Numbered from the stretch's first letter, positions 8,767-62,324 are shown. The stretch is DNA of 64,000 nt from Caldisericia bacterium (GCA_035363255.1 DAOSES010000006.1:25544-89543); one strand, 5' to 3'. The notes: generated by a model not told the origin, from the sequence alone. Program-made: numbers and translations.

Positions 8767-10380
8767 ATGGAATATTTTATGAATGAGTTTGTACTTTTGT
8801 TTACTATTTTATTTGTTGGATATAGTATTGGAAAGTGGTCTTTTAAGGGTATCTCTCTCGGAAGCACTGCAATATTAATTATCTCCTTATTGTTTGGCTA
8901 TTTTGGCTTTACGCTTTCCCATGAAATCATGGAACTTGGTTTGATTTTGTTTGTCTATTCCGTTGGCATCAGCGTTGGTGCAAGATTTTTCAGATCGTTT
9001 CGCAAAGAAGGATGGAAATACGTATTACTCGGGATTGCAGGTCCAAGTTTTGGCGCCCTGAGCGTATTTCTTCTTGCAGGTTTTTTTCATCTTCCGTTTG
9101 ATCTTGCCACAGGCCTCTATACTGGATCATTAACCAACACCCCTGCCCTTGCAGGTGTTCTTGATACCTTGACTCGAACCTCTCCTGACAAAATGGCAAA
9201 CGTTTCAAGCGCTTATGGAATAGCTTATCCTTTTGCTATGATAAGCCTTGTATTAATGAATCAGGTACTACCTCGCTTCAAAGGAGTTAACCTCAAAAAG
9301 GAAGAAGAAAACTTTAACAAAAGCGAGGAAGCATGGAGTTGTCCCCTAAGCATCCAACAATATAAAATCACCAATCCAGCTTGTTGGGGGAAAAGCATTG
9401 CTGAGATCAATCCCAACAGGATGATTTCAGCCAATTTTTCATGTGTTATCCGAAAAAAAACCATCATTCCCGCTAATTCAAACTTACATCTTGAAGAGGG
9501 CGATATTGCGCGAGTGGTTGGATCAGAAGAAGAGCTTAACAAAATGGGACTTCTTTTAGGGCAACAACACACTATGGAAGAGTTTACGTCCAAAGATTAC
9601 AATTTTATTGATGTTAAGATTCTAAACAAAAAATATACAGGCAAAAAAATTCAGGATATCCCCCTTTGGTCCAAGTATGAAGTTGTAATAACCCGAGTCC
9701 GGAGGAGTGATGTTGAGTGGTCCCCCAAGGGATCTCTTGTGCTGGAATGGGGCGATAGTCTTCGTATAGCCGGTATGGAACAAAACTTAAAACCCCTTGC
9801 CAAGGAAATCCAGGGCGATCTTAAACAATTGGAAGAAACCAACCTTATTCCATATTTTGCAGGATTATTGCTTGGAATTGCATTAGGATCCATTCGAGTC
9901 CCTCTGGGTTCGCAACTTCATTTGAGCCTCGGAAGTGCTGGGGGTGCTTTTTTGGTCAGCTTAATGCTTGGGCATATTGGCAGAATACGGTCCATTCCTT
10001 TCTATGTTCCCCCTGCTGTTAAGCATTTTTCAAGAGAATTCGGACTCTTACTTTTTTTAGCTGGAGCTGGTACCATGGCAGGATCCAGGATCATGCCCAT
10101 ACTGAAAAGTCAAGGTATATCCTTGTTGTTGCTTGGAGCTTTACTGACTATCATGGTAGTCTCAGTCAGTTTTATCCTTGCTCGTAAAGTGTTTAAACTC
10201 AACATATCAGCAACGATGGGTGCACTAAGTGCAATCATGACCAATCCACCTGCTTTGTCTTCTGCTCAAGCAAAAACAGATTCAGTCGAACCTTTACTGA
10301 ACTATGCAAGCATTTACCCCATAGCTTTAATAAGCAAAATTGTCTTAGCTCAAGTGTTGATTTTTTTGTTAGGGAAATAA
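8767..10380 (+). CDS. AAE-family (AspT/YidE/YbjL-type) duplicated transporter with central TrkA-C (RCK_C) domains.
   Basis: Two homologous membrane halves separated by two soluble segments of roughly 80 aa (IARVVGSEEELNKMG; LRIAGMEQNLKPL). Start may be 8731, 8767 or 8779. Confidence 0.75.
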   Translation: MEYFMNEFVLLFTILFVGYSIGKWSFKGISLGSTAILIISLLFGYFGFTLSHEIMELGLILFVYSVGISVGARFFRSFRKEGWKYVLLGIAGPSFGALSVFLLAGFFHLPFDLATGLYTGSLTNTPALAGVLDTLTRTSPDKMANVSSAYGIAYPFAMISLVLMNQVLPRFKGVNLKKEEENFNKSEEAWSCPLSIQQYKITNPACWGKSIAEINPNRMISANFSCVIRKKTIIPANSNLHLEEGDIARVVGSEEELNKMGLLLGQQHTMEEFTSKDYNFIDVKILNKKYTGKKIQDIPLWSKYEVVITRVRRSDVEWSPKGSLVLEWGDSLRIAGMEQNLKPLAKEIQGDLKQLEETNLIPYFAGLLLGIALGSIRVPLGSQLHLSLGSAGGAFLVSLMLGHIGRIRSIPFYVPPAVKHFSREFGLLLFLAGAGTMAGSRIMPILKSQGISLLLLGALLTIMVVSVSFILARKVFKLNISATMGALSAIMTNPPALSSAQAKTDSVEPLLNYASIYPIALISKIVLAQVLIFLLGK

Positions 10381-20768: not shown

Positions 20769-20840
20769 ACCCCAAAAGTATAGCACAGCATAGCGTAAAA
20801 AAGCACAAACAAACTATTGTTATAGATACATTGATTCATA

Positions 20841-21206
20841 GGGACGGGGGTGTTGACTCAATGACACCAATGACGTTAAACACTCTTGAATACAGCATAA
20901 AGAACAAAAGCAAAGATACTCGCAAGCACCGAAAATCTATAATTTTACGATAGGTATGTTTTGAAGCAATAGCCAGTAAAGCTTTATGAATAAAGAAATT
21001 ATATGTGATATGACAGTTTTTGAGAAAACTTAAAAAAATAAAAACTTATAAAAAGCACCATAAAGATTGATTAAAAGTGATTCTGTGGTTTACCTACACA
21101 ATTATCCCTGCTTTACTTACTTGGTCCCAGAAAAGATTAAAAACCTTACTATGACTATATTTAAATGAGTGAAAAGTGAGTCAACACCCCCGTCCCTCTG
21201 ACTCAA
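20841..21206. mobile_element. MITE-like non-autonomous element, copy A (about 366 bp). It has perfect 20-bp terminal inverted repeats (GGGACGGGGGTGTTGACTCA), an AT-rich interior and no ORF.
   Basis: Left TIR 20841-20860. Right TIR 21177-21196 is the exact reverse complement, followed by a conserved tctgactcaa that closes a 7-bp hairpin (tgagtca/tgactca). Confidence 0.8.
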
Positions 21207-21250
21207 TTTATAATCAAACAGGCAGAGCTCCTCGCAGATGAGCTGAATGA

Positions 21251-21278
21251 TTGAAGATTACTAAATACGACCTATAAT
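21251..21278 (+). promoter_or_regulatory. Near-consensus sigma-70-type promoter (TTGAAG-16-TATAAT) for the wHTH regulator gene, about 45 nt downstream of MITE copy A.
   Basis: -35 TTGAAG at 21251-21256; -10 TATAAT at 21273-21278. RBS GGAGG at 21300-21304; ATG at 21310. Confidence 0.6.
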
Positions 21279-21309
21279 ATATATCATATGAACTATGATG
21301 GAGGTCAAT

Positions 21310-21636
21310 ATGCTGGCAAAACTCCTTGGAGGGGAAACAGCAGAGAAGGTTTTAATCTACATGACGGTGTATGAAGAAGGATACGCAAGACAAATAAGCC
21401 GTCTTTTTGGTGTTGCCTTCGACCCTGTCAATAAACAGCTGAAAAAGTTGGAAGATGCTGGGATTTTGGTGGGTATAATGAAAGGGCGCACCAAGATGTT
21501 TTCCTGGAATCCACGATATCCCTTTTTAGCGGAGTTGAAGGCTTTATTTAAAAAAGCCTATGAATATCTTCCAGAAGAGGATAAAGAAAAGTATTACCGA
21601 CAAAGGACTCGCCCAAGAAAAAGCGACAAAAGGTAA
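21310..21636 (+). CDS. Small winged-helix (MarR/ArsR/PadR-like) DNA-binding regulator with a basic C-terminal tail.
   Basis: AEKVLIYMTVYEEGYARQISRLFGVAFDPVNKQLKKLEDAGIL is a wHTH pattern. Strong RBS 5 nt upstream of ATG 21310. The ORF-track start at 21295 is less likely. Confidence 0.6.
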   Translation: MLAKLLGGETAEKVLIYMTVYEEGYARQISRLFGVAFDPVNKQLKKLEDAGILVGIMKGRTKMFSWNPRYPFLAELKALFKKAYEYLPEEDKEKYYRQRTRPRKSDKR

Positions 21637-21821
21637 TGTGTCCACAGTCCTTAGAACAGGCTATTTTGGTTAGCCTGAATCATGCCATTTCCTATCAAGT
21701 GGTTCATGAATGGGCTATCGAGGAAAGATCAGAAGACAAGTACGATGAGTATTTAAGACAACTAAAACAAAGAAGGAGAGCTATATGCCAAAAATACTCA
21801 AGTTTCGCCATAAGCTTCTAG
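21636..21821 (+). CDS. 61-aa hypothetical protein translationally coupled to the regulator (TAATG overlap).
   Basis: Its ATG overlaps the regulator's stop. Its 3' end overlaps the start of the next gene. No known family. Confidence 0.35.
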   Translation: MCPQSLEQAILVSLNHAISYQVVHEWAIEERSEDKYDEYLRQLKQRRRAICQKYSSFAISF

Positions 21822-22621
21822 TCCTTGCTTTGACAGGATTAGTTTTTTTGTTGAGCTTCTTTTTTTTCACTCGCTCAAACAATTCTTCTCCAGATGAAAT
21901 CATATTTCCCACAGGGTATATTCGAGCCGAAAACCATGCAGATTATGGATCTTATCTAATGTTTATTGAACACCCCGATTTTAACTATATTGCTGGGCAT
22001 CCAAATCCCATGTTCCCCCAGGAAGTAAACGCTTACCTTGAAAAAATGCATCAACTGATGCCATTGTTTAATCAATACTCGCTTAAAAAACAAGGTAGAG
22101 TATTTCCAGTGGTCTCCGAGGGAAAAGAAATGATCCTTGTGGCGTATTATGAGCCATTTGATGCAAGCTTAACCTTAGTTGATACTTCCCTCAAGGTATT
22201 GGATACCAAGCAAATCTATGAACCCCATTTTCAATACTTTGTTAGTGCAAACTTTCGAGATAGGCTTTGGATTAAAGGTGCTGATGGGGGAAACCAAGCT
22301 TACTTTGAAATGGTTGAGATTAGGATTTTAAACAATAAAATCGTTCCCCGTAAAATCAGTTGGGGGGATCGGTATTTTGAGGATACCTACAAAATCATCC
22401 ATCCTTCTACTAATCCTGAGATGAGGATACACCAAAGAAAAGAAGATTTTGGGTATTATCGTTATTGGTTTTTCATGATAATATTCACTTTCCCAATTTA
22501 TATCATTGCTTTTTTTAATGCATATCGAGTCCTTGTTTTGTCTATTTTGTTAGCTCTGGCTTTGTTTATACTTTGGAAGCTATTTATCAAAGACAGACTC
22601 GGTAAGCGGAAGAAAGAATAA
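21785..22621 (+). CDS. Hypothetical bitopic or polytopic membrane protein: N-terminal TM, extracytoplasmic domain of about 200 aa, two C-terminal TM helices.
   Basis: Hydrophobic LLVLALTGLVFLLSFFFF at the N-terminus and FFMIIFTFPIYIIAFF...LVLSILLALALFILW at the C-terminus. Confidence 0.55.
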   Translation: MPKILKFRHKLLVLALTGLVFLLSFFFFTRSNNSSPDEIIFPTGYIRAENHADYGSYLMFIEHPDFNYIAGHPNPMFPQEVNAYLEKMHQLMPLFNQYSLKKQGRVFPVVSEGKEMILVAYYEPFDASLTLVDTSLKVLDTKQIYEPHFQYFVSANFRDRLWIKGADGGNQAYFEMVEIRILNNKIVPRKISWGDRYFEDTYKIIHPSTNPEMRIHQRKEDFGYYRYWFFMIIFTFPIYIIAFFNAYRVLVLSILLALALFILWKLFIKDRLGKRKKE

Positions 22622-22624
22622 AAA

Positions 22625-22647
22625 AGAGGGAGCCTTTAAGCCCCCTC
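22625..22647 (-). terminator. Rho-independent terminator downstream of the PQQ-propeller gene (minus strand); it is also placed after the plus-strand membrane-protein gene.
   Basis: Minus strand reads gaggg-ggcttaaaggct-ccctc followed by TTTTT. Confidence 0.5.
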
Positions 22648-22675
22648 AGAAGGTGAAACGGTAATTTAAGTTTAC

Positions 22676-23917
22676 TTATTTAAGCAACTTGATTGCATAG
22701 ATCTGATCCTCGGTGCTAAAACAAACCAAGTTTTGATCAACAGCAATTGAAGTAATTTCACCAAGAGCATTATATTTCCATAGTGTTTTTCCAGATTTCG
22801 CCTCAAGACAATAGAGGGAATCTTCAGTGTTGAAAAAAACATGGTCGTTATTAGCGCTGAGATTAAAAATGATCTCATCAAAAGTTTGTTCCCATTGCTT
22901 CTTGCCATTTTGTGGATCCACTGCGAAAAGCTTAGCTTTTATCTCCTTGGTCGAGGAGCTCAATATATCATAAGTGCTTATCAAAACGTGATTGCCAGAT
23001 AATATGGGTCCGTGGTTCGATGTTCCCGTAGCTGTGAATTCCCATAGCTTTTTTTGGTTAGCCAGATTCAAGGCCAGTAAAGTAGTTTCAACTTTTTTTT
23101 CCTCGATAGAGGCATTCTGGGGCGTATTCGGATTAATTGCTCGAGAAAAGGAGTAAAAGGCTGTTTTGTTGTGGATGAGGGGGTGGCTCCAAATGTGTTG
23201 ATCTTCTTGTTCGGAAGGTGTCTCATTATGGAACCTGACTTTCTGACCTGTAGCAGTATCAAGAGCAATAAGCGAATCAAAGCTTTCATTGTTGAGGTAT
23301 AAGTTGCCTTCATCGAAACCTAAGCCATCAATCAAAAAAGGAAAATCCTGGGTATGAATATGATTTTTTAAGTCCAAACTCCATAGTTTTGACCCATTGC
23401 TAATATCAATGGCATGAATAACCCCATTGTCACTGGCATAATAGAGAGTATTCTGATCGATCAGGGGAACGCATGTAAACTTAGATGATGATGCGGCAGG
23501 ATATTTCCATAATAGTTTTCCTGAGGTTGAATCTAAAGCATATAAATAAGCATCACTGCATGCAAAATATACAACTTTGTCCGAAACAGCAGTGCTTGCA
23601 TTTATATAGTCAAACTTACCTGAAAAGCGCATCGCAAAACCCTCGGATTTGTAGTCCCAAAGAAGGCTTCCCTTTGTTTTGTCAATCGCGCTAAAAGTAC
23701 CATCTTGAGTGGACAAAAAGAGATTGTCTTTGCCAAGAACGAGCATGTTGTTGTGTCTTATGGGAAGATCTATCTTCGAAAATACCCACAGAATCGAAGG
23801 TAGATATGGTGTTTTTTCATACATGCTCAAGTTTGGGTCAATTGGTGATTCAATCTTTTTTGCGCATCCAACAGGTATCAGAAGGATTACCAGTAAGGAC
23901 AAAAGAACTGTTTTCAT
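22676..23917 (-). CDS. PQQ-like beta-propeller repeat lipoprotein (BamB-like fold).
   Basis: Signal peptide plus lipobox MKTVLLSLLVILLIPVGC. Repeated PQQ-type motifs (AIDKTKGSLLWDY; YALDSTSGKLLWKY; HAIDISNGSKLWS; ALDTATGQKV). Confidence 0.75.
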   Translation of the reverse strand: MKTVLLSLLVILLIPVGCAKKIESPIDPNLSMYEKTPYLPSILWVFSKIDLPIRHNNMLVLGKDNLFLSTQDGTFSAIDKTKGSLLWDYKSEGFAMRFSGKFDYINASTAVSDKVVYFACSDAYLYALDSTSGKLLWKYPAASSSKFTCVPLIDQNTLYYASDNGVIHAIDISNGSKLWSLDLKNHIHTQDFPFLIDGLGFDEGNLYLNNESFDSLIALDTATGQKVRFHNETPSEQEDQHIWSHPLIHNKTAFYSFSRAINPNTPQNASIEEKKVETTLLALNLANQKKLWEFTATGTSNHGPILSGNHVLISTYDILSSSTKEIKAKLFAVDPQNGKKQWEQTFDEIIFNLSANNDHVFFNTEDSLYCLEAKSGKTLWKYNALGEITSIAVDQNLVCFSTEDQIYAIKLLK

Positions 23918-24072
23918 TTTTTTGTTACCATCTTTAGATAGCTCCAGCATTCCCACACCCCCAACCTTCCTCCTTATTGTTTGCATTTATTTTATTACTT
24001 CTTTTACTTGATACAAGCTTTAGAGTGTACGATAATCCAAGGATGAATGTAAGAAATTTTATCTGATACACA

Positions 24073-24440
24073 GGGACGGGGGTGTTGACTCAATGATACC
24101 AATGGCATTAAACTCTCATGAATACTCCATAAAGAACAAAAGCTAAAATACTCGCAAGCACCGAAAATCTATAATTTTAAGATAGGCATGTTTCGAAGCA
24201 ATAGCTAATAAAGCTCCATGAATAAAGATAATACACGTGATATGACTGTTTTTGAAAAAACATAGAAAAAATAAATAATTATAAAAAAGTACAACAAAAC
24301 CACTTGAGAACTAATTCTGCGGTGCACTGAAATATTTGCCTAGCTTTAAGTTATTAAATCCATGAGAAGATTAAAAGCCTTACTATGACTATATTTGATT
24401 GAGTGAAAAGTGAGTCAACACCCCCGTCCCTCTGACTCAA
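24073..24440. mobile_element. MITE-like element, copy B (about 368 bp). Same orientation and the same perfect 20-bp TIRs as copy A; the interior has diverged.
   Basis: Left TIR 24073-24092; right TIR 24411-24430 plus tctgactcaa. The first 200 bp or so are about 85 % identical to copy A; the centre is divergent. Confidence 0.8.
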
Positions 24441-24463
24441 GGTAAAGTAAGACATTTATTTCC

Positions 24464-24491
24464 TTGATAAGCATGTGATGTAGCATACAAT
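24464..24491 (+). promoter_or_regulatory. Sigma-70-type promoter (TTGATA-16-TACAAT) for the LamG-domain gene, about 25 nt downstream of MITE copy B.
   Basis: -35 at 24464-24469; -10 at 24486-24491; ATG at 24498. Confidence 0.55.
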
Positions 24492-60056: not shown

Positions 60057-60092
60057 TTGTTGAGTACCACAAACCTCGAATCGATGGGGCAT

Positions 60093-60119
60093 GTGCCAAA
60101 GGGATGGGGGTGTTGGCAC
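60093..60119. repeat. Hairpin with loop AGGGATGGGGGTG and a 7-bp stem (gtgccaa/ttggcac). It is related to the MITE terminal hairpin by loop identity and compensatory stem changes.
   Basis: The reverse complement of the MITE right-end hairpin is tgagtca-GAGGGACGGGGGTGt-tgactca; here it is gtgccaa-AGGGATGGGGGTG-ttggcac. Confidence 0.55.
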
Positions 60120-60120
60120 G

Positions 60121-60156
60121 TTAAAATGTCGCAAGTGCTGGATCCCCGTGTGACAT
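60121..60156 (-). terminator. Rho-independent terminator (repeat module copy 1) for the 722-aa beta-propeller gene.
   Basis: Minus strand reads atgtcaca-cggggatccagcact-tgcgacat + TTTT, abutting the stop codon. About 36 nt shared with 62355-62389. Confidence 0.65.
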
Positions 60157-62324
60157 TATTTTGCCTTTTTCCTTTTGGCAAATAGTATCCCCCAAATTCC
60201 CGCGAGGATCAATGCTGGAACAAGGAAAAACGGGATAGCCCAGGGGGAAGATGCACTTTGAATGGGGCTTGAAGCCTTACTCTCTGGTCGGGATATCTCT
60301 TCATTTATCTCACTTTCCAGCAATTGCACTTCCGTTTCGATTTCCTCCACTTGATTTTTTGCATCTGCATAAAACAAAGAAATCTGCCCTTCTGAGGATA
60401 TTTGGAATATCCCTCGGACACCTTGCTCAGTTAACGAAGAGAATAAGTAGGCTTGATCCTCGTGAGTGTAGATATCTTCGGTATACAAGGAGGTAACTTT
60501 GCTTTTATTGGTGCCATCCTTCCGGATTCTATAAACCTCTGTAGGCAAGCGATCAGGGATATAGTAGATCCAATTTTCACTCAGATTGTAAGTCCTTACA
60601 GGCTCTTCGATTAGGGATACTTCATGGGTGCGCTGGTAATCCATACGATACAGATGTTTTTCTTCATTTAAAAAGTAGAGGTGGACAGCATCAATGATCA
60701 AATCGCTTGCTTTACCCTCTCGCAAAACCTTGTAATCGCTTCCATCGATTCCTACTCGGATAACATTCCCATCCTCTGCTCGTGCATATATTAGATACTT
60801 TCCCTTTAAATTCAGACAATAACTATGATCTTTACTGATACCAAAACGCTCCCCAGTAACAAGATGTTGCTTGAAAAGCTGATAACCCTGAGCTTTAGTT
60901 GAAAAGTAAATCCAAGGATCCTGCACCAAATAAGAAGCAGGGAAATCCAGGATTTGCCTGGGCTTCGCGCTTTTCCATGGATCCAAAAAGAGGGTTCCAG
61001 AGTAGATGGAATCTCGATTGACATAATCCTGCCTATACAACAAACCTTGCGAAGTGTAGCGGATATCATACCAAAGAGCATCATCTTTGATAAGCTCTTC
61101 TTCATCAGTAATTAGGGACTTGTGGATGATCTTGCCACTGAATACTCCATCAGAATACAAAAAATACACCTGATTCTCATGGAAACTCATGTGCCCCCTT
61201 GAATTTCGGTAAGGGATGAGTGCTTGATTGTTTTCATCCAGTTCTTGGGTTTGCGTCTCTTGCGTTATAGGCTTGCTTTCGATTAAGGCATCAAAATTAC
61301 GATGACTTTTATCCATTGGATTAAAAATCTTCCAATTCCAGTTTTGTATATAGAAAACATGATTTTGAGCTATATGAATAGTTCCATCAGTATTGGAAGC
61401 CAAAAGCTCAAGATGCTTTCCATTTGAGTGTATCCGATACAATGTGAATGAATCTGTTGGGTAAGTATATTCAGGAAGATTTTGACCAGGAGTCTCTGTG
61501 ACTGAAAAATAAACCCAGGGATCAAGCACATTGATGGATTTGATGCCTTTGAGCTGACTTAGTCGGCTTTTCTTGCTTCCATCTTTTTTCATGCGATAGA
61601 GAGTGTTGTTTTCTTTTGAATGCAGATAATAGATCCAATCCCCTTCCACCAGAAGGAAGCTGGCAGGGTCAGGCCCAATCTGCTTTGCTTCTGTTCCGTC
61701 TCGCTTACAAAACATGATAAAAGCCTCATCGTCCTTGGCTTGGGTGAAGTAAAAGCCTTCCGGGGCAAGATTTAGCTGATGAAGCAATGAGGTATAGCTT
61801 TCAGTGGAGGGCTGGTTTGAGGAAGGGTAAACAGAATACACCGTTTTTTTCTCTGCAATGTTGCTTAAAGACCTTTTGATGATGCTAGTTGTGGATAGGG
61901 AATATATCCATTCACCGTCCCAATGGTAATCAAAGCTGGAGTAAATGGATAAATCATGTCCTTGATCCAGGTTGTTTAGATTTAAGTACTGAATACCGAC
62001 TTGCTCTCTAAACAGCAATTCATCGCCAATGATGTTAATATTATCAACTGTTCGACTTGATGACAAAGGGGTGTACTCCGATCCATCCAATTTTGATCGA
62101 AACAAGCTACAACCACGGGTGCAATTGGAAAAGTAGATGTATTCTCCTTGCGAAGCGAGAGAACCCCAGTTGTGTAGGTTGCCATTGGTGTTGCCAGTAA
62201 TAAAAGTGTTAGTAGCTTGGATTTGATGAATTCGAACTGGAATAACGTTTAAAATGAGAAATAAGGCAAACAAAAGTATTAAGCAAAACTGCTTATAAGG
62301 GTTTTTTTTTACTTTCATTGACAA
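60156..62324 (-). CDS. Large exported beta-propeller-like repeat protein with a C-terminal TM anchor (DUF5050-like 'x-Y-R-x-x-x-DGS' repeats).
   Basis: N-terminal signal/TM. Repeats LYRMKKDGSKK, LYRIHSNGKHL, VYRIRKDGTNK. C-terminal FFLVPALILAGIWGILFAKRKKAK. Confidence 0.6.
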   Translation of the reverse strand: MSMKVKKNPYKQFCLILLFALFLILNVIPVRIHQIQATNTFITGNTNGNLHNWGSLASQGEYIYFSNCTRGCSLFRSKLDGSEYTPLSSSRTVDNINIIGDELLFREQVGIQYLNLNNLDQGHDLSIYSSFDYHWDGEWIYSLSTTSIIKRSLSNIAEKKTVYSVYPSSNQPSTESYTSLLHQLNLAPEGFYFTQAKDDEAFIMFCKRDGTEAKQIGPDPASFLLVEGDWIYYLHSKENNTLYRMKKDGSKKSRLSQLKGIKSINVLDPWVYFSVTETPGQNLPEYTYPTDSFTLYRIHSNGKHLELLASNTDGTIHIAQNHVFYIQNWNWKIFNPMDKSHRNFDALIESKPITQETQTQELDENNQALIPYRNSRGHMSFHENQVYFLYSDGVFSGKIIHKSLITDEEELIKDDALWYDIRYTSQGLLYRQDYVNRDSIYSGTLFLDPWKSAKPRQILDFPASYLVQDPWIYFSTKAQGYQLFKQHLVTGERFGISKDHSYCLNLKGKYLIYARAEDGNVIRVGIDGSDYKVLREGKASDLIIDAVHLYFLNEEKHLYRMDYQRTHEVSLIEEPVRTYNLSENWIYYIPDRLPTEVYRIRKDGTNKSKVTSLYTEDIYTHEDQAYLFSSLTEQGVRGIFQISSEGQISLFYADAKNQVEEIETEVQLLESEINEEISRPESKASSPIQSASSPWAIPFFLVPALILAGIWGILFAKRKKAK

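Follow-up and report, generated by a model that had tools for sequence, protein, structure and literature searches.

Systems that pair repetitive extragenic palindromic (REP) sequences with REP-associated tyrosine transposases (RAYTs) were reportedly treated by Nunvar in 2010. In such systems, copies of a short unit with a palindrome are scattered through intergenic DNA, either singly or as inverted doublets (REP doublets forming hairpins, or REPINs), the inverted unit also flanks a single-copy, syntenic transposase gene of the HUH/Y1 type, the non-autonomous doublets are presumed to be moved in trans, and insertion sequences (IS) of the IS110 family target the unit; the repeats described here are alike in each of these respects. 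REPINs and RAYTs have been treated by Bertels & Rainey 2011 (PMC3116915, PMC3337134), a structure of TnpA-REP is available (4ER8; PMC3479197), and RAYTs are described as single-copy, domesticated and vertically inherited (PMC5581495, PMC3337134). Related Y1 genes flanked by terminal inverted repeats (TIRs), the TIR-associated tyrosine transposases (TIRYTs) and their TIRtrons, were described by Di Nocera et al. 2013 (PMC3733652); the passages of Quentin et al. 2018 on these genes equate them with TnpA-Y1 subclass 2.1 and report no REP-like structures around subclass 2.1 genes (PMC6006769). Here, we compare with these systems two non-coding elements, A and B, that flank four genes in a 64-kb window (the whole stretch of DNA analysed, from an assembly labelled Caldisericia bacterium and belonging to the 103.6-kb JGI metagenome contig Ga0116195_1000082). 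We put at roughly 80% the probability that A and B are non-autonomous, REPIN- or TIR-type partners of a RAYT/TIRYT-type Y1 transposase encoded elsewhere, and that they are rarely mobilised in trans by way of their hairpin ends.

Results

Anatomy of elements A and B

The 20-mer GGGACGGGGGTGTTGACTCA occurs at exactly four sites in the window (20841 and 24073 on the plus strand, 21177 and 24411 on the minus strand), with none expected (100 shuffles). A preliminary description of the locus had recognised perfect 20-bp terminal inverted repeats on two copies of an element, and these sites bear it out. This 20-mer forms the core of a REP-like unit of 29 nt, which consists of a 7-nt arm, 2 nt, the G-rich loop GGGACGGGGGTGT and the arm TGACTCA. 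Because a degenerate outer arm is present at the left ends too, the inverted repeat is about 29 nt long rather than 20, and the elements span 20831-21206 (A, 376 bp) and 24064-24440 (B, 377 bp) rather than the ~367 bp first proposed; their direct orientation, both on the plus strand, and the inversion of the two ends of each element relative to each other stand as described. A and B can be aligned end to end, with homology ending at the outer feet of the terminal hairpins. Both are free of open reading frames (ORFs), belong to the family that we call F1, and have orthologues in relatives: A at the same site in contig L045 (7503-7860), and B in L045 (8856-9213), L057 (7997-8353), L058 and L050.

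The two ends of an element are not equally well preserved. The left unit of A (20832-20860, plus strand) has the degenerate arm TGATTCA, followed by TA, the loop GGGACGGGGGTGT and the arm TGACTCA, and contains a TTGACT that resembles a -35 box; because of the degenerate arm, the predicted energy of its DNA hairpin is just -1.3 kcal/mol. The left unit of B (24064-24092, plus strand) likewise has a degenerate arm, TGATACA. The right units (21177-21205 in A and 24411-24439 in B, both on the minus strand) are intact hairpins, and that of A reads TGAGTCA-ACACCCCCGTCCCTC-TGACTCA on the plus strand, with a stem of 7-8 bp and a DNA folding energy of about -4.6 to -5.4 kcal/mol. In both elements the right extension TCTGACTCAA completes the 7-bp stem TGAGTCA...TGACTCA, in agreement with the 7-bp hairpin noticed earlier. 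Between the termini lies an interior of 316 nt. The preliminary description had called it AT-rich and ORF-less, with diverged centres between identical ends; this is correct, the interiors having a G+C content of 0.33 (33%), no family-conserved ORF and a mutual identity of ~80% with the termini excluded.

A third REP-type site lies at 60092-60160 (plus strand), in a convergent intergenic gap. It is a doublet that combines a variant unit with covarying arms, TGTGCCA-AA-GGGATGGGGGTGT-TGGCACG, and, after it, another hairpin, AATGTCGCA...TGTGACATT, whose loop is C-rich; doublets of this type are also found in L003, L010 and L018. The presence of this doublet suggests at least two unit variants in the host, and possibly two or more Y1 genes.

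A dispersed family of units and elements

An exact scan for the 20-mer over one genome per species gave matches in five contigs of three metagenome-assembled genomes (MAGs), and a scan of metagenome contigs gave 38 loci; viral contigs gave no match, and the motif string returned chance matches only in the literature. Between inverted units we found 23 distinct elements without ORFs, at many unrelated loci; they measure 317-403 bp, and a single one of them falls outside 317-358 bp. As had been proposed, the copies in the window are thus members of an old dispersed family and not a local segmental duplication. Family F1 comprises A and B and elements of L045, L057, L021/L036, L041, L051 and L054, with interior identities of 69-91%. 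A second family (L009, L017, L026, L030, L033) is ~60% identical to F1, and three more show an identity of just 30-45%, which is near the expectation for unrelated AT-rich sequence. The unit is also found in head-to-head short doublets of 46-47 bp (L012 1655-1701, L024 791-836) and as solo units on either side of a gene, such as the Fic gene in L016. There are six units in 20 kb of L062, five in the 64-kb window and three exact matches in the fragmented MAG PXBT01.

With a 7-bp stem, a 15-nt loop and a DNA folding energy of about -5 kcal/mol, the unit has the palindrome expected of a REP. Among 51 distinct 29-nt units, 12 have perfectly complementary arms and another 11 pair at 6/7 positions (23/51 at 6/7 or better); the rest are degenerate. 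Three compensatory arm variants were found, namely TGAGACA/TGTCTCA, GTTGTCA/TGACAAC and CGTGCCA/TGGCACG. The hairpin therefore matters, yet the invariant part of the unit is the loop with the inner arm.

No target-site duplication was found around the 23 elements, with the single exception of the copy shared by L021 and L036. This absence fits HUH/Y1 chemistry and does not fit DDE chemistry. In the exceptional copy (L021 11700-12280, L036 7920-8500), an F1 element lies between two direct copies of a 33-nt terminator-like hairpin, AATAAAAA...GAGGGAGCCGGGAAGGCTCCCTC, a duplication seen at no other copy; L041 and L062, which share the right flank, have the right 33-nt repeat only. The repeat could be an unusually long insertion duplication or a product of recombination. 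A search for empty sites of A or B gave no clean one in the relatives, since L051 and L052, which are without A, also differ in the upstream gene.

The MAGs with the exact 20-mer are labelled Syntrophomonas, Cloacimonadota and Caldiserica (L001 2310-2365; L003 2880-2920; L002, L004, L005), and the named homologues of the Y1 protein described below are all from Bacillota. This mixture of labels points either to horizontal spread or to mis-binned or mis-labelled contigs.

A Y1 transposase gene bracketed by the unit

On L002 the motif precedes by 40 nt a 253-aa ORF whose product matches Pfam Y1_Tnp at 3e-16. With this protein as a tblastn query, homologues were found in L021, L034, L041, L042 (two) and L043, and database look-ups added L059 and L062-L064. 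All of these Y1 genes, which represent four distinct variants, are bracketed by the inverted unit at 20-85 nt from the ORF. From unit to unit the span is 878-880 bp in all but L002, which has a variant unit in its downstream flank. A full-length element with a transposase between the same repeats, named in the preliminary description as the counterpart to look for, is thus represented by these 878-880-bp Y1_Tnp units.

The best NCBIfam match of the protein is NF047646, REP-associated tyrosine transposase (73-76 bits), and its only sequence match in the PDB is E. coli TnpA-REP (4ER8). Two motifs are legible in the sequence, HVH (the HUH motif) and YIHQNP (the tyrosine motif). The Y1 domain occupies residues 13-123 of 253, some 110 residues more follow, and these include a weak match to HTH_23 (E=0.008, residues 229-252). 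More than 5000 database proteins match at E<=1e-20; the named ones come from Bacillota (Syntrophomonas, Syntrophothermus, Clostridia, Formimonas and others) and are labelled RayT, REP-associated tyrosine transposase or simply transposase.

In seven contigs (L062, L041, L021, L042, L059, L063 and L064), which are 79-96% identical in nucleotide sequence, the Y1 gene occupies one syntenic site after the M20 peptidase gene of the dap (lysine biosynthesis) operon; it is found, for example, at 10001-10762 in L062, 6001-6762 in L059, 10239-11000 in L041 and 1453-2205 in L021. At this site the gene is, as judged on contigs, single-copy, vertically inherited and non-transposing, which is how RAYTs are described as behaving. 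F1 elements lie ~10 kb from the Y1 gene on L062, L041 and L021. L042 has a second, distinct Y1 paralogue ~3 kb away, and each of the two has its own arm variant, GTGCCA and GAGACA. Within the window, tblastn found no RAYT, IS110 or IS21 transposase, although this was not an exhaustive domain scan of all ORFs of the window; to that extent, the earlier statement that the window holds no transposase is upheld.

The Y1 genes and the non-coding elements also have a promoter-like pattern in common. Before all four gene variants, TTGACT is followed after exactly 17 nt by TA[GA]AAT, and in almost every family of elements one end has TTGACT, 16-18 nt and then TAAAC, TAAAT or TAAGC. In A (20853-20881) and B (24085-24114), both on the plus strand, the TTGACT of the terminal unit and a TTAAAC/TAAACA box are separated by 17-18 nt, which makes a weak promoter-like or recognition motif. 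We infer that the pattern is the promoter of the Y1 gene, partly retained by the non-coding elements.

Relatives of the locus

Because none of the loci fetched by the motif showed synteny with the genes between A and B, relatives of the locus were sought through protein homologues of a 278-aa membrane protein (mem278) encoded between the elements and of a LamG protein encoded beyond B. L058, a contig of an NCBI MAG that is 97% identical to the window in nucleotide sequence, has the same gene order. In L045 (~90%), the elements A' and B' occupy the same sites and enclose mem278 only; the regulator, the 61-aa ORF, the PQQ gene and the LamG gene of the window (described below) are all missing. 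L057 (93-94%) has mem281, the element B'', three unrelated minus-strand genes and LamG, together with three copies or fragments of the regulator module. L051-L053 (~88%) have Schlafen-like/UvrD genes upstream and no A; the regulator-ORF-mem module is present (L051/L052), and downstream of mem280 there is an F1 element just 73% like B, then an unrelated 495-aa gene before LamG. In L054-L056 (81%), an RHS locus is followed by a unit interrupted by IS110 and by LamG.

Retained amid these differing contents, A and B are therefore long-standing residents of two intergenic sites, with adjacent genes that come and go. Interior identity is 80% between A and B of the window, 79% between A and A', 83% between B and B', 91% between B and B'', and 91% between A' and B' (both of L045; 7503-7860 versus 8856-9213), against ~90% for the DNA flanking the elements between the window and L045. 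From this comparison of interiors with flanks, the interiors appear to drift neutrally under conserved termini, and neighbouring copies, which lie 1 kb apart in L045, seem to have undergone gene conversion in that lineage. The preliminary description was right that synteny breaks at this place, as the gene content beside B is hypervariable among relatives.

Several irregularities in the relatives coincide with the repeat. L049 starts within the right unit of B, which is an assembly break at a repeat, and L050 also begins inside or at B. At L058 2600-2735, a stretch of N, together with ~120 nt of unrelated sequence, interrupts B; the most likely cause is a scaffolding artefact at the repeat. 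In L057 (8355-9945), three unannotated minus-strand genes form an insert of 1.57 kb whose position coincides exactly with the right arm of the B-type element, with ACTCA at both junctions (TGACTCA|...|ACTCAA); this single example may be an insertion into the arm.

The interiors of the elements

The interiors share no ORF that is conserved in frame or position across the families. An origin from the Y1 unit was considered and rejected, because the two show no similarity; in particular, permissive blastn and tblastx searches for a decayed Y1 gene gave noise only. Rfam had no match in the whole window at gathering thresholds or in element A at E<=10. Readings of the elements as integron-like attC sites, CRISPR or group II introns were dropped, there being no integrase, no regular spacing and no matching RNA family.

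Against mononucleotide shuffles, the interiors fold no better than chance on either strand (z of -1.6 to +1.2; -0.5 to +0.6 for A and B). Whole elements reach z of -5 to -7, which is due to the terminal repeats alone. RNAalifold proposes four small helices with 8 compensatory pairs as against 5.7 in shuffles; none of 500 shuffles reaches the covariation score, and slid controls collapse. Essentially just two subfamilies contribute to the covariation, and the alignment used to score it is also the one from which the structure was derived.

Genes between and beside the elements

All four ORFs that had been described between A and B exist. A promoter-like site, TTGAAG-16-TATAAT (21251-21278, plus strand), lies 45 nt past A in a conserved module that recurs in relatives, and precedes a 113-aa putative winged-helix protein (21295-21636, plus strand). 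The winged-helix call, made earlier without reserve, has only sub-threshold matches to HTH_24 and DUF2250 behind it. The presence of this gene varies among relatives: it is missing from L045, and L057 has three copies or fragments of its module. Coupled to it is a 61-aa ORF (21636-21821, plus strand) that has no Pfam family, has counterparts of 46-53 aa in relatives, and overlaps the start of mem278 by 37 nt (21785-21821). The mem278 gene (21785-22621, plus strand) is likewise without a Pfam family and, alone among the genes between A and B, is retained throughout the relatives. On the minus strand, 22676-23986 encodes a 436-aa PQQ-like beta-propeller lipoprotein, confirmed by Pfam (PQQ_2, 7e-30); this is a variable insert between mem278 and B, found only in the window and L058. 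Beyond B, homology with relatives restarts at 24435-24464, and a promoter-like site of the LamG gene, TTGATA-16-TACAAT (24464-24491, plus strand), lies 24 nt past the element. The G+C content of the genes between A and B is 0.37-0.415, within ~1.5 standard deviations of the window mean (0.414 +/- 0.030), which is unremarkable.

A promoter module, TCAAACAGGCAGAGCTCC...GATGAGCTGAATGATTGA, stands ahead of both the regulator and mem278 in relatives. In the window, TCAAACAGGCAGAGCTCCTGGCAGATGAGCTGAATGATTGA(A/C) lies at 21214-21294, upstream of the small winged-helix gene, and it is also found at 7880-8000 in L045; in L045 and L057 the module lies immediately upstream of mem278. L057 has it three times (1514, 5499, 6856) within an apparent defence/toxin island (HigB, HTH_3/M78 peptidase, DUF3800, Macro, methyltransferase). 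Because the module is repeated, recombination between its copies would account for the presence or loss of the regulator pair.

Insertion of an IS110-family element into the unit

An IS110-family protein of 323 aa (DEDD_Tnp_IS110 and Transposase_20) is 100% identical in seven loci. The element that encodes it is inserted so as to split the REP-like unit, separating the loop ...CCCGTCCCTC from the 3' arm TGWCTCA, with copies at L034 1878-3200, L042 1470-2880 and L054 8528-9850. Intact homologous sites are present at L062 14027-14055 and L059 7366-7394; comparison of these with the occupied site in L042 directly shows insertion into the unit. This is REP-targeting behaviour, which is known for IS621 and ISPpu9.

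Discussion

By analogy, the system described here appears to work like REP/REPIN-RAYT, and its closest counterparts are probably the TIRYTs and TIRtrons. It differs from REPIN/RAYT systems in several ways. There is no GT[AG]G tetranucleotide at the 5' foot; the invariant part is GGGACGGGGGTGTTGACTCA, with CGTC in the loop on the other strand, so that what is conserved is the G-rich loop and one arm, and not the stem as in REPs. The interior of A and B is 316 nt long, AT-rich, non-palindromic and partly conserved, whereas REPIN spacers are 34-110 nt long and form hairpins. The enzyme has 253 aa with a C-terminal helix-turn-helix-like tail, compared with ~165 aa in RAYTs, and the host is a Bacillota-like anaerobe rather than a proteobacterium. 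In the parts of Di Nocera et al. that concern their proteins and repeats, TIRYTs are longer RAYT-like Y1 proteins with a C-terminal helix-turn-helix, a description that the 253-aa protein may fit (its C-terminal HTH_23 match is weak, E=0.008), and TIRtrons are genes flanked by long G-rich inverted repeats that are moderately abundant as singles, dimers and clusters, as here (PMC3733652). However, the consensus given in those parts, GGGGWSAS, is unmatched, the nearest strings being GGGGACGG and GGGGGTGT (PMC3733652), and, unlike the repeats portrayed there, each inverted repeat is here itself a hairpin with covarying arms. The portions of the TIRYT and subclass 2.1 literature drawn on here contain no description of ~350-bp dimers with a conserved non-palindromic interior.

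Other mobile elements are less similar. With IS200/IS605 and the ORF-less palindrome-associated transposable elements (PATEs), the system has in common HUH/Y1 chemistry, end hairpins, the lack of target-site duplication and short ORF-less derivatives. Yet its ends are 29-nt inverted repeats, whereas IS200/IS605, with both hairpins read on a single strand, lack inverted repeats at their ends; and its Y1 gene is single-copy and fixed, whereas IS200/IS605 are multi-copy and mobile as a unit. Like bacterial miniature inverted-repeat transposable elements (MITEs; Correia, ERIC, RUP, Nezha and others) and the arms of composite transposons, the elements are non-coding, have terminal inverted repeats and occur in multiple copies, two of which can bracket genes. 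In contrast to MITEs of DDE transposons, which duplicate their target site and arise by internal deletion of an IS, they show no duplication and have an interior unlike the Y1 unit; in contrast to composite transposons, the genes that they flank do not travel with the repeats. The label MITE, given to the elements in the preliminary description, therefore holds loosely, for a non-coding inverted-repeat family; as the partner enzyme is of the HUH/Y1, REP type, REPIN/TIRYT is the better frame.

If A and B are partners of such an enzyme, the Y1 protein would recognise hairpin-forming units on single-stranded DNA, cut at the feet of the units, and move or copy the DNA between two inverted units without target-site duplication; it could act in trans on singlets, short doublets and long doublets alike. 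Both catalysis by this enzyme and a single-stranded intermediate are what its HUH/Y1 character leads us to expect. Movement would be rare in this lineage, A and B having stayed in two divergent intergenic regions since before the relatives split. The termini would remain perfect as the interiors drift, neighbouring copies would sometimes be homogenised by gene conversion, and the surrounding genes would turn over by ordinary insertion, deletion and recombination. On this account, the 2.9-kb 'cassette' is simply what now lies between two independent residents.

Some observations weigh against this account. The 316-nt interior is unlike the hairpin-forming spacer of classical REPINs, and its constant length and conserved islands are not accounted for by transposition alone. 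Nor is a hairpin strictly necessary, given that the arms fail to pair in many units, among them the left units of both A and B. The score of the Y1 protein (73-76 bits) is just under the NF047646 equivalog cut-off of 80 bits. There is no Y1 gene within the 64-kb window, and its own genome only presumably encodes one; L062, which comes from the metagenome that also yielded L057 (the 93-94% relative of the locus), offers the closest link. Finally, for the long elements no empty site or excision product turned up, and their mobility is therefore inferred only from their occurrence at unrelated loci.

We weighed several other explanations. The preliminary description saw the locus as composite-transposon-like, with A and B as arms that mobilise the 2.9-kb regulator/membrane/PQQ cassette as one unit, and two direct-orientation copies around four genes, at a locus where gene content varies among relatives, do have that appearance. 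Yet L045 keeps A and B at the same sites around a single gene, L051/L052 have the winged-helix-ORF-mem module but no A, the PQQ gene was inserted independently and is confined to the window and L058, and variable genes lie outside B as well (L057, L051). Arms only ~80% identical, a G+C content that is not deviant, the lack of any target-site duplication around A, cassette and B, and the fact that this unit is never seen elsewhere also speak against a composite transposon, as do those passages of Quentin et al. according to which no REPtron/RAYT system is known to mobilise the DNA that it flanks in one piece (PMC6006769); we regard this explanation as very improbable. A duplication of regulatory or segmental kind confined to this locus would suit two copies in direct orientation 3.2 kb apart, and is already refuted by the relatives of the elements at many unrelated loci in many samples. 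Long perfect inverted repeats and an AT-rich, ORF-less interior would also suit classical MITEs of a DDE transposon, with a coincidental Y1 association. There is, however, no target-site duplication and no DDE gene between the ends; the only DDE-type genes nearby are the IS110 copies (DEDD) inserted into the unit and an unrelated IS21 copy, and 4/4 distinct Y1 gene variants are bracketed by the unit, which leaves such MITEs with hardly any probability.

It is less far-fetched, though still unlikely, that A and B are exapted functional modules, in which the conserved interior encodes a small non-coding RNA, or a promoter or insulator is driven from the TTGACT of the terminal unit, and which are kept because they regulate adjacent operons (winged-helix, LamG). 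The length is constant, 317-358 bp in all but one member, across families with interiors 30-60% identical; a TAAAC/TAAAT box follows TTGACT after 16-18 nt in nearly all families, as in the TTGACT-17-TA[GA]AAT before the Y1 gene; some compensatory changes occur in the four small helices (8 versus 5.7 pairs); and both copies in the window end 24-45 nt before a promoter-like site of a plus-strand operon. On the other hand, the interior has no thermodynamic structure and no Rfam match even at E=10, the box is a poor -10 element (3-4/6, with the final T often missing), the covariation stems essentially from two subfamilies on a structure taken from the same alignment, and what the same end points towards in L051 and L057 is the 3' end of a convergent gene. 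Any promoter or regulatory role of the TTGACT-17-TA box is putative.

A more speculative proposal, to which we give a small chance only, is that the ~320-360-bp elements are an undescribed class of RAYT/TIRYT-dependent modules, made of two inverted REP-like hairpins, a constant-length cargo, a promoter within the terminal repeat and possibly a small RNA. If so, divergent intergenic regions would receive promoters or insulators from such modules, which would also mark hot spots of gene exchange in uncultivated anaerobic Bacillota, and subclass 2.1 Y1 enzymes, which are without known REP-like substrates, would gain a defined substrate family.

The account of A and B as partners of a RAYT/TIRYT-type enzyme has several implications. 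As a matter of caution, two flanking copies of a repeat need not mean a composite transposon. For genome annotation, the family explains contig breaks and repeated intergenic sequence in MAGs from digesters. More broadly, it links a very large group of Y1 proteins from Bacillota, labelled RayT or plain transposase, to a concrete substrate, namely the 29-nt hairpin unit, in which the G-rich loop is invariant. It also suggests that such a system maintains long non-palindromic non-coding elements (~350 bp) besides short doublets. The REPIN/TIRYT picture would thereby reach beyond Proteobacteria, with substrates that can be tested biochemically.

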